Position numbers and translations under genes: made by a program
The notes under the pieces: generated by a model
The model's input: only the letters and a program-made list of their open reading frames with translations
What the model was told of the DNA's origin: nothing
Database searches by the model: none
Sequence record: PQ863256.1
Direction: 5' to 3' (one strand)
DNA from: Escherichia phage Ptacy1479
Length of the DNA stretch: 64,000 nt
In this document: positions 58,449-64,000 of the stretch, one piece after another
Position numbering within the stretch: position 1 is the stretch's first letter
Layout of the letters: each line of letters begins with the position of its first letter

Positions 58449-59642
58449 TTATTTTCCTAAAAATAATCCGCTCATAACACCATCCCACTCAGAGGACGGA
58501 ATCACTGAATACTCCGAACTTTGGTCCAGAGTTCCACTACTAAATCGCTGAACAATGTTATAGATGTTGAACAGATCTTTAGTCTCAGCACGAATGCCGT
58601 AGATTAACCTGTCAGCTGTTCTTTCATTTTTAGACACGCGACGGGTAAAGTTAACCAAAAGATTATCACCTTTAAGTATCTCTGACCCATCTTTTACTAG
58701 ATCGGGGTGCATCACTGGCAAGAACATTGAGTTGTTAACTCGCAATTCTGCTGTTTCGTCGTTCTCATAATGAATCCACTTAAAGTCTTCATCACGGAAG
58801 TGACCGCATCCATCTCTGTATGACTGTTGACGCCAAGGAACTTGAAATGCTTCAGCGTATTTATCAGCCATGCCGACTGTAAACAGCGACGCTGGGAAGA
58901 TACAAGCATCCCAATCGTTACCAACCAGAGTTGCTTTCTTTTCCCCTAAGAGGTTAGTGTAAGTGCTAACCATTCGTGAGTAAGCATAAGCCTGAAGGAT
59001 TGTCCAGCCTTCAACCAACCATTTATGAAGGAAGGTTTCAACTTGACTCTCTTCATCTTCACAATAGAAGGTTCGGTCTAGCATCAAATAGAACAGACAA
59101 CGATCAGCAGGGATGTTCTCAGTTGCTACCCCCATAAAACCTTTCTCGTGCCAGCGTAAACAGGAGGGACGATCTTTATCCACAAATGCTTCCATAGCTT
59201 CCAGTACAGCACGAGGTGTGGTTCGATGTTCAGGGTTTTTGTCGTTCCAACGTTCGATGTTATTTTTAAGCTCGCCTTCATGATCAATTGCACCCCAACC
59301 TAAAGCTGCGGATATAGGTTTTTCATCACGCCAACGTCTAAAACCTAACATCTTCATGTGAGTTCCGGAGTTCCAGATATGCTTGATTTTACACATATCC
59401 ATCTCTCGGCTTAATAAGAACTCTTCCCCATCAGCACTACGAACGTTAGCTTCTTCATGCCACACTCGAACGTGCATATTCCACCCATGAGTTGCCTCAT
59501 ACATGTTAGGGTCGAAGTATTCATCTTCGTCATCATCTTCATCAACGCCACCATTATAGTTGCGAAGCTGAAGGAACCCATAACAAGGAGGATTGACCGT
59601 TAAAACATTACCTTCAGTATCTTCTAATGTTACTGGAAACAT
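58449..59642 (-). CDS. hypothetical protein in enzyme cluster
   Basis: 397 aa; acidic N-terminal tract, Cys/His/Trp-rich; no motif recognised. Confidence 0.45.
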   Translation of the reverse strand: MFPVTLEDTEGNVLTVNPPCYGFLQLRNYNGGVDEDDDEDEYFDPNMYEATHGWNMHVRVWHEEANVRSADGEEFLLSREMDMCKIKHIWNSGTHMKMLGFRRWRDEKPISAALGWGAIDHEGELKNNIERWNDKNPEHRTTPRAVLEAMEAFVDKDRPSCLRWHEKGFMGVATENIPADRCLFYLMLDRTFYCEDEESQVETFLHKWLVEGWTILQAYAYSRMVSTYTNLLGEKKATLVGNDWDACIFPASLFTVGMADKYAEAFQVPWRQQSYRDGCGHFRDEDFKWIHYENDETAELRVNNSMFLPVMHPDLVKDGSEILKGDNLLVNFTRRVSKNERTADRLIYGIRAETKDLFNIYNIVQRFSSGTLDQSSEYSVIPSSEWDGVMSGLFLGK

Positions 59643-59653
59643 TACACCAACCT

Positions 59654-60016
59654 CTATTGGTTTTTAATCAACTCAATCGATTTACGGATATAGAGAATAT
59701 CTCGGAAGTTTCGATAGTTGTTCATAAATTGATGCTTCTGGAAAGTAGCTTCTTCCAGAGCTTTCTTTGCGTCTGCGTAGCTTTTACGGGCAAGATGTAC
59801 AACCCGTTCTGGTAGCATGTTTGCATGACGGATGACATACTTGTGAGCTTTCATGTTGCTTTGCTCACGAGCAATCTTACCTTTAGCAACTTTGATACCA
59901 TTTGCAATCCAAGCAAGTTCCTGCTCAAGCTCATCGTTGGACATTCCACCGAGGTTTGATGCAACCTTGTTCAGAGTTTCAATATTAACGTTGCCCTTGA
60001 TGGGACGTGTATTCAT
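59654..60016 (-). CDS. hypothetical protein
   Basis: 120 aa; CAGGAG upstream of ATG. Confidence 0.45.
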   Translation of the reverse strand: MNTRPIKGNVNIETLNKVASNLGGMSNDELEQELAWIANGIKVAKGKIAREQSNMKAHKYVIRHANMLPERVVHLARKSYADAKKALEEATFQKHQFMNNYRNFRDILYIRKSIELIKNQ

Positions 60017-60018
60017 AC

Positions 60019-60171
60019 TTACTCCTGTTGTTTACACTCGTCAATAACCCACTGATAAGTGGATTGCTCAGAAAAGAAACACTGAATAAATCCAGATGTT
60101 CTCTGCGTTACCAGTGCTAGTGCACAAATCACTACCGCTGCTGCTAGCAGTTTTAAATCTAATTTAGACAT
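60019..60171 (-). CDS. small membrane protein (50 aa; not in track)
   Basis: GAGAGGAAAT upstream of ATG; hydrophobic LLAAAVVICALALV; terminator hairpin just upstream. Confidence 0.4.
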   Translation of the reverse strand: MSKLDLKLLAAAVVICALALVTQRTSGFIQCFFSEQSTYQWVIDECKQQE

Positions 60172-60624
60172 ATTTCCTCTCATTGAATTTAAAAAAGGAC
60201 TCTCCGAAAAGAGCCAAGCTTTAAATCCAAAAAAAAGATATTACCCAATATCTGTGGATAACCTGCTCTTAAAATATCTATCCGACGGATGTTTGAGGAA
60301 CACTCCTCGCCCTAGCATCGGCCCCATACGGGAAATATATTAAGATTAGGTTAGTTGAGTCAGAATAACTCACATAGCCCTCCGAGGAAGGCTATAGGCG
60401 TTACTACAACTAAAAATCACCTGATTTTACAAAACTATCACTAAGAATTTCGTCAATCTCTTTGCTAGTCAAATCTTTCCTGAACCAGCAACAAGGAACA
60501 TCCACTCATTGACCAGAGTTGTTCTCTACAGAACATCGATTCCCTGTCTTACTCTTGCATTTATAGGATTTTCCTTTATCTAGGCGATAGTGTAATCTGT
60601 AAACGACAGACACAAGTGTTATCA

Positions 60625-60858
60625 TCACTCGCCTTTCTTAGCACGATCTTTGGCAGTTTTGCCAGTGCGGATTCGATGAGAAACGTTAACCAGAGTGCCA
60701 CCATCAACTACGGTAACGCTCTTGTTTTTAGCCAGATCGAACACAGTCTTCTCTGTGCCGCCCAAGCGAATTTGCTTAGGCTCGCTGAAGGTTTGGGTTG
60801 ATTTGGATTGGAACTGGAACGGTTGACGGATTGCGTCGATTGCGCTTACTTTAGACAT
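60625..60858 (-). CDS. hypothetical small basic protein
   Basis: 77 aa track ORF. Confidence 0.4.
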   Translation of the reverse strand: MSKVSAIDAIRQPFQFQSKSTQTFSEPKQIRLGGTEKTVFDLAKNKSVTVVDGGTLVNVSHRIRTGKTAKDRAKKGE

Positions 60859-61090
60859 AGGGGAAATTCCTTAAAAAGTCATGGCTGCGTAGAGGGAATT
60901 CCCTACGCAAATTGGGCTGCCCACAGAGAGGCGTCATAGTACTAAAAGGAGGAGAGAAGAGGGCTTATTTAGTTACCTTTTTTCTGTCCGTTTACAAACC
61001 AGATAATTGAGCCGTCAGGCTGTCGTTGACCGAAGCCTTTTTGGTTAATCATATCGTCATAAGAATATGCTTTACGTCTCATTTGTTTTC

Positions 61091-61333
61091 CTATGGAGTT
61101 AAGATAATTTCAGCCTTACTAAACTTCTCACCAACTTCAAGAGTATCAGCAACAGGACGAGGCACACCTGTACCCAAACAAACAGCCCTTCGATACCCTC
61201 CAGTCACAGGCATCATCAAATAGATGACCTGATTATCATCTTCTTTTAAAGTGAAGATATCAGCGATCGCTAGATCTTTAACAAAGAGTTTCTTTTCTTC
61301 TTCATGATGAACTTTGATATGTATTGTGCTCAT
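61091..61333 (-). CDS. small protein, tandem paralog array member 4
   Basis: shares V.L.TL..G..F...R.V.L..G...V.PV pattern with neighbours. Confidence 0.5.
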   Translation of the reverse strand: MSTIHIKVHHEEEKKLFVKDLAIADIFTLKEDDNQVIYLMMPVTGGYRRAVCLGTGVPRPVADTLEVGEKFSKAEIILTP

Positions 61334-61335
61334 GC

Positions 61336-61587
61336 CTACTCCTGAACCACTGACATACGAATCATTTCTACCTGATCATCAAGACCTTTAACAGATAATA
61401 CACCTGTGGAAAGGTTTATCACAGGAACCCAGCCACTGGCTATGCGAATGTTACCAGAAGCATTTTCAACCCTCATGTAATACTGAGGAGAAGCACTTCC
61501 GTTCTGAACTACGAAGGGGTTTCCGGGAATGATTGTTTCCAATCGTACCGTAGTATCCTTTTTCTTAGGGATGATTTTCATTAGCAA
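61336..61587 (-). CDS. small protein, tandem paralog array member 3
   Basis: same family pattern. Confidence 0.5.
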   Translation of the reverse strand: MLMKIIPKKKDTTVRLETIIPGNPFVVQNGSASPQYYMRVENASGNIRIASGWVPVINLSTGVLSVKGLDDQVEMIRMSVVQE

Positions 61588-61829
61588 TCACTCACTAAAA
61601 GTTCTGCCGACACAGGAATAACTTGGCACCAGCTAGACGGTGCTGTTACGTTACCATCAGATAGACGGAGAGAGAGTACTCGATCAGAGTTAACGGTTAC
61701 ATTAGGACTTTCAGATACAGTCCCTTTGACATAGAGAGTAGCACTCTCGGGGAATTTAAACACTGCTCCGCTGGGAAGGGTGTTGAGATCAACCTTGGTC
61801 ACTTCTTCTTTCTTGTGAGTAATCTTCAT
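61581..61829 (-). CDS. small protein, tandem paralog array member 2
   Basis: same family pattern. Confidence 0.5.
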   Translation of the reverse strand: MKITHKKEEVTKVDLNTLPSGAVFKFPESATLYVKGTVSESPNVTVNSDRVLSLRLSDGNVTAPSSWCQVIPVSAELLVSDC

Positions 61830-62080
61830 TTAGAATCCTTAATAACGTTAGCTTCAACCTTAACAGGAATAACAGAGATGCCCTCAACGGGGCCACTTAA
61901 GTGTCCATCTTCCAGTCTAACACACACGACTCGATCTCGTGCAACTTCTACCCAATTAGTAGATGCCGCAGTACAGACCATATGAATTGGACCGTTCTCT
62001 TCCAGCCGGAAGGTATCGCCCTTCTTCAGAGTGTGGAGTTTCACAGTCTTGATAGTTTTGTTCAATTCGTTAACTTTCAT
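61826..62080 (-). CDS. small protein, tandem paralog array member 1
   Basis: same family pattern; ATGA coupling to next gene. Confidence 0.5.
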   Translation of the reverse strand: MKVNELNKTIKTVKLHTLKKGDTFRLEENGPIHMVCTAASTNWVEVARDRVVCVRLEDGHLSGPVEGISVIPVKVEANVIKDSK

Positions 62081-62088
62081 ATTGATTC

Positions 62089-62400
62089 CTATTTGAGTTT
62101 CAGGCTAATATTAAGGTGCATACATGCCCTGTTCTGTACAGCAGCATAGCTTCTGCCGAGCATGTCAGCCATTCTCTGAATAGACATAAACCCGGCATTA
62201 CGGATAAGGAACTGGTCTTCTTCTTTAGACCACTTAACTCGGATTACAGCTCTAGAGATACCAAACTTAGTGCAAGCTGTATTAACTGCATTCTCCGTTA
62301 CATTCATAATCTGAGCAACCTCTTGAACAGAGTACTCTTTGATTAGTCTCCGAAGATTTTCAATCTGTATCGGAGTCCATATAGTTCTTCGAGCTTTCAT
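62089..62400 (-). CDS. DNA-binding protein with two HTH-like segments (putative transcriptional regulator)
   Basis: YSVQEVAQIMNVTENAVN and MSIQRMADMLGRSYAAVQNR. Confidence 0.5.
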   Translation of the reverse strand: MKARRTIWTPIQIENLRRLIKEYSVQEVAQIMNVTENAVNTACTKFGISRAVIRVKWSKEEDQFLIRNAGFMSIQRMADMLGRSYAAVQNRACMHLNISLKLK

Positions 62401-62692
62401 ACATCCTCCAATTAAATATTTATATAAGACTTGCTTAGATAAAGATTCAATAAAATAGGGGGAGGGGACGAATCCTCCCTTATCCTATTAATTAATATTG
62501 CATGTAAGATCTAACAATCGGTTGCCTTTGTAGGAATAAGCGTTATGCTAATCCAGCACTAAACTCCCGCCCCCCTTAGTGGGCTGGGTTATTAAAGGGT
62601 AACGCCCTTATGGGCTAGTTACGTGAATGTTAGTTTGATAGGAGATCTGAAGTCCTATCTCAAAGGACTCTCGTAAGAATCCTTCACGATAG

Positions 62693-62878
62693 TCACGCTT
62701 TGAGCGTGGTACAGATTAATGTTGCATGTCTTTGGTTATACAGTTCGAAGTAACGAGGCTTGCTCCAGTCTCTGTCTCTGGTAAATGATTGAAGGATGAA
62801 GTGTCTGTCACACCCAAGCCACTCAGAAACATCCATCGCTAGACGTATAGGAGAACCTCTGAACTCTTTCCTTTCCAT
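62693..62878 (-). CDS. hypothetical small protein
   Basis: 61 aa track ORF. Confidence 0.35.
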   Translation of the reverse strand: MERKEFRGSPIRLAMDVSEWLGCDRHFILQSFTRDRDWSKPRYFELYNQRHATLICTTLKA

Positions 62879-62887
62879 CCTAACCTC

Positions 62888-63121
62888 TTACTTTTTGACG
62901 GGAAGAATCATATCCCACAGCCATGCCCACAAAATAATGGATATAAGAATCACAGCAACGATGGGCCATAGAAAAACTATAATCGCTATCTTTGATAAGT
63001 TTGGTTCGTTACCCCACCCTCTGAACTCGACACTACCTTTTACATCGAGGAGTTTTATCAGAGCTGAAACTGTCACCATACCTATCAAGTAGACAATCAA
63101 GATACTAACAAGACTGGTCAC
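62888..63121 (-). CDS. two-TM membrane protein (GTG start)
   Basis: LVSILIVYLIGMVTVSALI and IAIIVFLWPIVAVILISIILWAWLW helices; GGAG 9 nt upstream of GTG. Confidence 0.45.
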   Translation of the reverse strand: MTSLVSILIVYLIGMVTVSALIKLLDVKGSVEFRGWGNEPNLSKIAIIVFLWPIVAVILISIILWAWLWDMILPVKK

Positions 63122-63278
63122 AAGGTTGATCTCCGCATGTTTTACAAATTACTGGTGAATAACTACAGGCAGGGTAGACAGAAACCCCATCCCACGTCTC
63201 ACACCCACAATCAGGACATGTGCCGTTTGATTCCATGTCATCATCGTCATCTACTTCACCGCCACCAAAACAACTCAT
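63105..63278 (-). CDS. small Cys-rich protein (57 aa; not in track)
   Basis: AGGGAG 7 nt upstream of ATG; CPDCGCE...CKTCGDQPC. Confidence 0.4.
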   Translation of the reverse strand: MSCFGGGEVDDDDDMESNGTCPDCGCETWDGVSVYPACSYSPVICKTCGDQPCDQSC

Positions 63279-63287
63279 ATGAACTCC

Positions 63288-63509
63288 CTAGTAATTTACG
63301 CCGGTGAGAGTAGCATGTTTCATGGGAACTACTTTAGCGTGTGGAAGAAACCCATCCGTTTCACCATTGGTCAGGTTTACAGCTTTCTGATACCCACCGC
63401 GAAAGGTTGTTGTTTTTATCCAAAAACACCCATTCCATTTAAACACATCACCTCCTGAGAGAGTGGACATTTCTACCGGAGGTATTCCCTCAGTTGCATT
63501 AATTATCAT
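63288..63509 (-). CDS. small protein, fifth member of the ~80-aa paralog family (start chosen at Met18)
   Basis: VEMSTLSGGDVFKW aligns with VKLHTLKKGDTFRL of 61826..62080; start uncertain. Confidence 0.4.
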   Translation of the reverse strand: MIINATEGIPPVEMSTLSGGDVFKWNGCFWIKTTTFRGGYQKAVNLTNGETDGFLPHAKVVPMKHATLTGVNY

Positions 63510-63747
63510 AGCATGTATCCCAATACATATAGTTAACATACGTTCTCGGTTTGAGTCCATATATAATGAAGTGAGTCTTCTTAATTCTTTCCTTCAGTGT
63601 GTAATAAAGGCCATCACTGAAGTTACCAATCTTCACTTGGAAACGTAAGGAGCGAGCATCCATTCGAAGCATAGAGTTTAACTGGAACTTACTACTCCCA
63701 GCCATCTCTTCAAGAAGCTTCTTCGTATTCCAATAATGAGCTGTCAT
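63499..63747 (-). CDS. hypothetical small protein (start revised to Met26)
   Basis: AAGGAG 8 nt upstream of ATG 63747, 1 nt after upstream stop. Confidence 0.45.
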   Translation of the reverse strand: MTAHYWNTKKLLEEMAGSSKFQLNSMLRMDARSLRFQVKIGNFSDGLYYTLKERIKKTHFIIYGLKPRTYVNYMYWDTCYDN

Positions 63748-63748
63748 A

Positions 63749-63982
63749 CTACCACTCCTTACCGGTCGTAGTCGTAGAACCACCACACCACTGCGCATCT
63801 GACAAGGTTTTAGTTTCCTCATCTACTGCTGCACCGTTCAGGCATGAGATACCATTGTAACGCATATCAATTTCACCAGAAGGAACCTTCTCGCCTTTGT
63901 GCCAACGAGAAACACAAACACCTTCCACTGCTACTGCACACCATCCATCAGGACGGCTCTGTACGCAGCCTGTAAGGGCCAC
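63749..63982 (-). CDS. hypothetical Cys-rich small protein near window edge
   Basis: 77 aa track ORF; upstream context truncated by window. Confidence 0.35.
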   Translation of the reverse strand: MALTGCVQSRPDGWCAVAVEGVCVSRWHKGEKVPSGEIDMRYNGISCLNGAAVDEETKTLSDAQWCGGSTTTTGKEW

Positions 63983-64000
63983 ACAGACAAGGAAGATACA

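Follow-up and report, generated by a model that had tools for sequence, protein, structure and literature searches.

In the phiEco32-like coliphages (Kuravirus, Gordonclarkvirinae), published work on phiEco32, SU10 and YF01 assigns a block of genes of unknown function to the early class, with transcription from host sigma-70 promoters that lie at the right end of the genome (PMC8948821, PMC4281155, PMC9965538). Gordonclarkvirinae also resist restriction-modification and most of the defense systems tested against them, with no known inhibitor (PMC11990801). Mip (LUZ24 gp4) and phiEco32 gp79, two effectors from ORFan screens, resemble the genes considered here in being short early genes of virulent phages for which no homologs of known function were found, but they differ in having defined targets (MvaT, RNA polymerase), and we saw no kinship between them and the family described below. 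LUZ24 gp7, which does belong to that family and is its only member to have been put to an experimental test, was included with 12 further early proteins in the same Pseudomonas aeruginosa expression screen as Mip; four of the 13 inhibited growth, but gp7 was none of these and gave no growth phenotype (PMC4635203). Here we analyze a 64,000-nucleotide (nt) stretch of Escherichia phage Ptacy1479 (PQ863256.1; the whole stretch is called the window), and in particular five short minus-strand open reading frames (ORFs), four in tandem and one apart, that belong, by sequence comparison, to a widespread, old multigene family of virulent phages, carried without function in databases and expanded in Kuravirus. 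The five, with lengths in amino acids (aa), are:

61826..62080, minus strand: paralog A (type T7), 84 aa, first gene of tandem array 1
61581..61829, minus strand: paralog B (type T3), 82 aa, phi32_97 ortholog
61336..61581, minus strand: paralog C (type T1), 81 aa from the likely ATG start at 61581, phi32_96 ortholog
61091..61333, minus strand: paralog D (type T2), 80 aa, divergent member, phi32_95 ortholog
63288..63509, minus strand: paralog E (type T13), 73 aa, singleton at the phi32_104 position

All five are present in the ORF list of the window where a preliminary description, made from the sequence alone, had placed them, and its proposal that they form one paralogous family through a shared pattern holds clearly for A, B, C and E, and for D by profile-profile comparison and by way of phi32_95. 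Pairwise identity among the five is low (22-33%), and we compared Smith-Waterman scores with those of 1000 shuffles. The resemblance is better than chance for A-B (z 22), B-C (5.4), A-E (5.2), B-E (4.9), A-C (4.3) and D-E (3.4), while D-A, D-B, D-C and C-E (z 0.5) are at chance. A family hidden Markov model (HMM) built solely from distant relatives outside the window and run on its 649 ORFs recovers A (E 5e-23), B (2.6e-20), C (1.5e-16) and E (3e-15). The motif on which the proposal was based, V.L..L..GD.F ... V.L..G ... V.PV, coincides with the most conserved columns of the family, with partial deviations in C, which has VEMI in place of V.PV, and in D, which has neither the glycine of GD.F nor V.PV.

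D deserves separate treatment. The family HMM ranks it fifth (E 2.8e-3, 13.2 bits; next ORF E 0.6), but the top score in 20 shuffled ORF sets is 12.0 bits, so that D is marginal on HMM score alone, and a profile of A, B, C and E searched against the window ORFs misses it. When the 135-sequence family alignment is compared with the family of D by hhalign, however, the two align in register at 93% probability (E 3e-7). The phiEco32 ortholog of D, phi32_95, is 51% identical to it (E 1e-24) and matches the family at 95.5% (E 1.5e-8), and the PHROG to which D belongs (12612) is matched by 15 of the 135 family members. Because of these three results we regard D as a divergent member that has lost the GD.F glycine and V.PV. 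Profile searches of the window ORFs found no sixth member.

The alternative that the shared pattern is a coincidence, or that these ORFs are meaningless filler, draws on the low pairwise identity and on the comparisons at chance level, yet we give it next to no credence and reject it in view of shuffle z values of up to 22, HMM E-values down to 5e-23 with a profile drawn from unrelated phages, about 460 clusters of full-length relatives, purifying selection and a confident structure prediction for A.

The family extends well beyond these phages. An exhaustive profile search of 1.84 billion representatives returned 462 clusters (at 50% identity) with E up to 1e-3, and among the matches listed nearly all are stand-alone proteins of 68-92 aa that start with MKI and are matched over their full length. 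N4 gp21 (E 8e-18) and LUZ24 gp7 (HMM E 8e-14) are members at the sequence level, PaP3 ORF65 matches by fold only, and the model of A has structural matches to proteins of many phages of Klebsiella, Erwinia, Proteus, Vibrio, Serratia and Pseudomonas; two metagenomic contexts of members resemble accessory regions of virulent phages. Five relatives in other phages (P0127, P0147, P0172, P0205, P0239) are two-domain fusions with two matched stretches each. The top match, P0110 (3353 aa, E 2e-54), was set aside with other large proteins: these are repetitive, several of them with Ig-like or fn3 repeats, and short partial matches add up along them. A word-indexed search gave 99 clusters, all on Kuravirus-type contigs of about 77 kb, and tblastn with one central member, which is too insensitive for this family, gave 5 phage records and 0 plasmids. 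Databases split the relatives into about ten unannotated families, which are joined here into one superfamily: PHROGs 7832 (matching A, E 1.5e-26), 7431 (matching C, E 6e-30), 6570 (matching E, E 1.4e-15), 12612, 8365, 9955, 16423, 34455, 29867 and 10911, all labelled 'unknown function'. Like the window genes, these relatives, N4 gp21 and LUZ24 gp7 are homologous stand-alone proteins of 70-90 aa, with a common signature that runs MKI ... V.L..L..GD.F ... YMK ... aVNL.tG.l..f ... VIPV.aE.

Searches for relatives of known function gave little. None of the five window proteins matches Pfam or NCBIfam, and Pfam yields no consistent match across the 135 relatives. Profiles from the 22- and 135-sequence alignments find only chance matches among PDB sequences (E at least 0.38), with a cutoff of E 0.1 PADLOC models match neither the five proteins nor N4 gp21 nor LUZ24 gp7, and our literature search, which covered early genes of phiEco32, N4 gp21, anti-defense in Kuravirus, screens of phage accessory genes and early proteins with an SH3-like fold, found no paper on these genes. 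In about 150 kb of T4 scanned there is no clear member. Two T4 genes gave weak partial matches, which could reflect remote kinship or chance: pin, the Lon protease inhibitor (L014 46897-47382), in its N-terminal part only (HMM E 0.018 among 347 ORFs; hhalign 33% over 42 columns), and ndd.1 (L016 47102-47317; HMM E 0.005, hhalign 17.5%).

What sets Kuravirus apart is copy number. Positions 60000-64000 of the window match about 100 phage records, all phiEco32-like coliphages, the best being Ptacy1532 (94.8% identity), and a comparison of the early regions of six related genomes with the window phage (7 genomes) reveals 14 sequence types, with 8-10 members in each of the six. By comparison N4 has one clear copy (first 20 kb scanned), LUZ24 one clear and one weak copy, and a scan of 45 kb of the distant relative 7-11, a Salmonella phage, gave 3-4 copies, which are dispersed. 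The Kuravirus layout comprises array 1 downstream of a regulator gene, a singleton at the phi32_104 position, a phi32_109-type copy in some phages, and array 2. The phiEco32 counterparts of the tandem genes are phi32_95-98, immediately downstream of phi32_99, and that of E is phi32_104, all annotated "hypothetical protein". Array 2 (phi32_113-115; L003 11031-11733, with equivalents in L004-L008) has 3-5 tandem members downstream of phi32_116 and lies past the end of the window. The placement of the genes at the upstream end of the minus-strand region, as first described, is therefore correct within the window but not beyond it, since array 2 follows further on and the phiEco32 early promoters lie about 10 kb further.

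Individual copies come and go among these close relatives. At the A position phiEco32 and ES17 carry type T11 instead, and B is absent in SU10 and shortened to 56 aa in WFI101126 (gp103, L008 7517-7687), apparently by a frameshift or deletion. E (T13) is less than 45% identical to T6, the allele at the phi32_104 position in all six of the other Kuravirus genomes, although the two are related (phmmer E 5e-16); its nearest database cluster, P0042, is 86% identical to it, and at 63288-63509 we may be looking at a cassette replacement. Several Kuravirus paralogs are nearer to members from outside Kuravirus than to one another, which argues that the repertoire is old and not the product of a recent burst.

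Selection on these genes is purifying. In eight ortholog sets, pairwise ratios of nonsynonymous to synonymous substitution rates (dN/dS) range from 0.04 to 0.27 (A 0.04, B 0.22, C 0.21, D 0.18), similar to neighboring genes, with no sign of gene-wide positive selection, and the five ORFs are thus real genes maintained by purifying selection. Synonymous divergence (dS) spans 0.22-1.24 and exceeds 0.45 in 7 of the 8 family sets, as against 0.03-0.41 in 7 of 8 neighboring genes. High dS with low dN/dS fits exchange of divergent alleles and not positive selection on point mutations. The family had been called diversifying, and this is apt in the sense that the paralogs are at most 33% identical, that alleles are swapped, lost or truncated among close phages and that dS is elevated, but each ortholog set on its own is under purifying selection.

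That the proteins would be early also agrees with the literature, as the genes fall within the block that work on phiEco32, SU10 and YF01 puts in the early class. Inside this block no internal promoter signal stands out, and promoter-like sites are fewer than in shuffles (5 vs 9.2 expected). Proteomics of SU10 lysates detected no family member.

The junctions within array 1 are tight, if not quite as first described. The stop of A and the start of B share ATGA, as proposed, and A has an AGGA ribosome-binding site. The proposed 7-nt overlap of B and C arises only with a TTG start for C at 61587, an unlikely alternative to the ATG at 61581, which is the likely start because all C homologs begin MKII; with that ATG the overlap is 1 nt (TAATG). 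C and D, reported to overlap, are 2 nt apart, with GGAG as ribosome-binding site. The start of E, at 63509, falls within the last part of the upstream gene, an overlap of 11 nt. Array 1 is adjoined upstream by a gene outside the family:

62089..62400, minus strand: D5-like regulator with two helix-turn-helix (HTH) motifs, equivalent of phi32_99

This gene matches phrog_323 (E 1e-27) and Sigma70_r4_2 (E 3e-7), and the order of regulator and then array 1 is the same in all six related genomes. Its product has two HTH-like halves (residues ~17-43 and ~57-93), and its match to the PHROG 'D5-like' regulator profile is confined to the middle of that profile (91-190 of 319). A GC-rich hairpin resembling a terminator (GGGAGG...CCTCCC, then a T-rich run) lies just upstream of the regulator gene on the minus strand, at 62460-62479, in a gap of about 290 nt (62401-62692) that is unusually long for this tightly packed region.

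The window members are stand-alone single-domain proteins of 73-84 aa, and their fold is probably, on a tentative reading of the model for A, a five-stranded SH3-like small beta-barrel. AlphaFold with a 22-sequence alignment gives A five strands (predicted local distance difference test score, pLDDT, 84; predicted template modeling score, pTM, 0.70); for D, whose own alignment is shallow, the model is all-beta, but with a pLDDT of 55 it is not reliable and is too poor for comparison. Foldseek of the A model against PDB finds nothing significant, the best match being to EF-P/eIF5A (E 0.11). The nearest solved folds are EF-P domain I, the eIF5A N-domain and the L2 C-terminal domain, five-stranded small barrels over which 50-70 residues superpose. 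At the sequence level, Pfam EFP_N (EF-P / eIF5A KOW-like) matches none of the five window proteins and only 1 of the 135 members (E 0.024). The same general fold class includes the FeoA/DtxR C-terminal domain, Tudor/PWWP, the VapX antitoxin, the RNA-polymerase-binding domains of CarD and UvrD, and SPbeta YorP, all of which serve as protein- or ligand-binding modules. YorP itself (PF09629) stays below threshold, with a weak match in 1 of 135 members (E 0.096) and no match by PDB sequence. Judging by the model, these fold neighbors point to no specific functional relative.

Conservation is distributed unevenly along the protein. The conserved columns (A numbering) are M1, K2, I3, V13, L15, L18, G21, F24, Y33, M34, V54, L56, G59, V70, P72 and V73, of which G21, F24, L56, G59 and V70 are 88-99% conserved in the 135 sequences, D being without G21. 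These hydrophobic and glycine or proline positions look like core and turn residues. The segment from F24 to L56, by comparison, shows next to no conservation in the 135 sequences, and its length can be anything between 18 and 41 residues; the predicted loop between strands 3 and 4 is hypervariable. Isoelectric points (pI) run from 4.3 to 9.3 among the members, and the family thus shares no charge of a nucleic-acid-like or nucleic-acid-binding kind.

What might such proteins do? We infer protein binding, host targets and possibly an anti-defense role, and our preferred reading, which we hold tentatively and would rate at somewhat less than an even chance, is that they are accessory proteins that bind or modulate host factors, each paralog having one target. 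Single-domain cytoplasmic proteins of about 80 residues would be made early from long polycistronic transcripts, from genes that are tightly packed and may be partly coupled in translation. The barrel would provide a stable scaffold, on which the hypervariable strand 3-4 loop, together with other exposed positions, could give each paralog a binding partner of its own, so that each would bind, modulate or neutralize a different host protein, with components of anti-phage defense as the most plausible targets. On this reading the genes would be conditionally useful accessories and not host-killing shut-off factors, which would explain why phages swap, lose and regain single copies; that LUZ24 gp7 caused no inhibition of host growth likewise argues against shut-off toxins. 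A more far-reaching version, which we consider unlikely, is that the barrel is an evolvable binder scaffold whose loop is retargeted to host immune or housekeeping proteins, and that Kuravirus carries a recombining cassette library of 8-10 binders that explains its broad resistance to defense systems.

The defense resistance of Gordonclarkvirinae speaks for such a role, though only circumstantially. Several points weigh against the idea of host-factor binders. The resistance of Kuravirus may come instead from DNA modification, as the BASEL authors suggest (PMC11990801). No member has a demonstrated partner or phenotype, and across Pfam, NCBIfam, PHROG annotations, PDB and the literature, a search that included no dedicated anti-defense profiles, we found no similarity to a characterized anti-defense or host-takeover protein. 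Nor does any neighboring gene recur consistently across phages to hint at a pathway. Values of dN/dS well below 1 carry no arms-race signature at the level of the whole gene, the variability of the loop could simply be a lack of constraint, and the assignment of conserved positions to core and turns was made from the sequence and not from a three-dimensional model.

The other explanations that we weighed appear weaker than host-factor binding. Small beta-barrels often oligomerize, and if the paralogs were subunits of one hetero-oligomeric phage complex, such as an Sm/Hfq-like ring, the tandem order and coupling of the genes could set its stoichiometry. Tandem genes with ATGA and TAATG junctions and the two-domain fusions in other phages would suit such a complex, but the composition is variable: some phages lack B or have it shortened, the types that take the place of A and E are less than 45% identical to them, and array 2 can have 3-5 genes. 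N4 and LUZ24 have one clear copy each in the regions scanned. Nor does A resemble Sm, LSm or Hfq proteins: neither an N-terminal helix nor an Sm motif is predicted (there is no helix of >=4 residues), Sm chains superpose with a TM-score of about 0.2, and there is no LSM Pfam match. We therefore consider the complex rather improbable. Much the same low standing goes to RNA- or ribosome-binding modulators of translation acting through a 'translation-protein SH3-like' barrel, a proposal that follows from the weak fold neighbors and that the spread of charge (pI 4.3-9.3) disfavors. The position of array 1 beside the D5-like HTH regulator invites the further suggestion that the proteins are its transcription co-factors, for example by binding host RNA polymerase as the Tudor-like domains of CarD and UvrD do. 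We think this less probable again: array 2 and the singletons, which make up the other half of the family, do not adjoin the regulator, members are dispersed in phage 7-11, their neighbors differ in N4 and LUZ24, and gp36 and gp79, the polymerase factors known from phiEco32, are unrelated to the family.

One further feature of the window lies apart from the family. The minus strand at 54941-59642 carries clustered genes of the amidoligase / COOH-NH2 ligase type that correspond to phi32_84-88, with an annotated glutamine amidotransferase just upstream in related genomes. For LUZ24 of Pseudomonas (gp14-19) and 7-11 of Salmonella (gp102-105) the annotation shows the same block, and it is a metabolic or modification module common to distantly related podoviruses.

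Taken as it stands, the result is solid and descriptive; early regions of phages commonly yield findings of this type, a widespread, expanded and uncharacterized protein family. The observation of paralogous genes at this locus is confirmed and extended, and its interpretation as host-takeover or anti-defense functions, typical of such genes according to the preliminary description, is a reasonable guess. Joining about ten PHROGs in one superfamily, with a confident structural model of one member, allows better annotation in any case. If host-factor binding proves to be true, one fold would account for a sizeable share of the "hypothetical" early genes of Kuravirus, and a role would follow for one gene each in N4, LUZ24/PaP3 and other virulent phages of Gram-negative bacteria. 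Gordonclarkvirinae are often isolated on diverse strains of Escherichia coli, and there are now BASEL isolates able to plate on K-12. For these phages the family would supply 8-10 defined candidates for a defense resistance that is so far unexplained.

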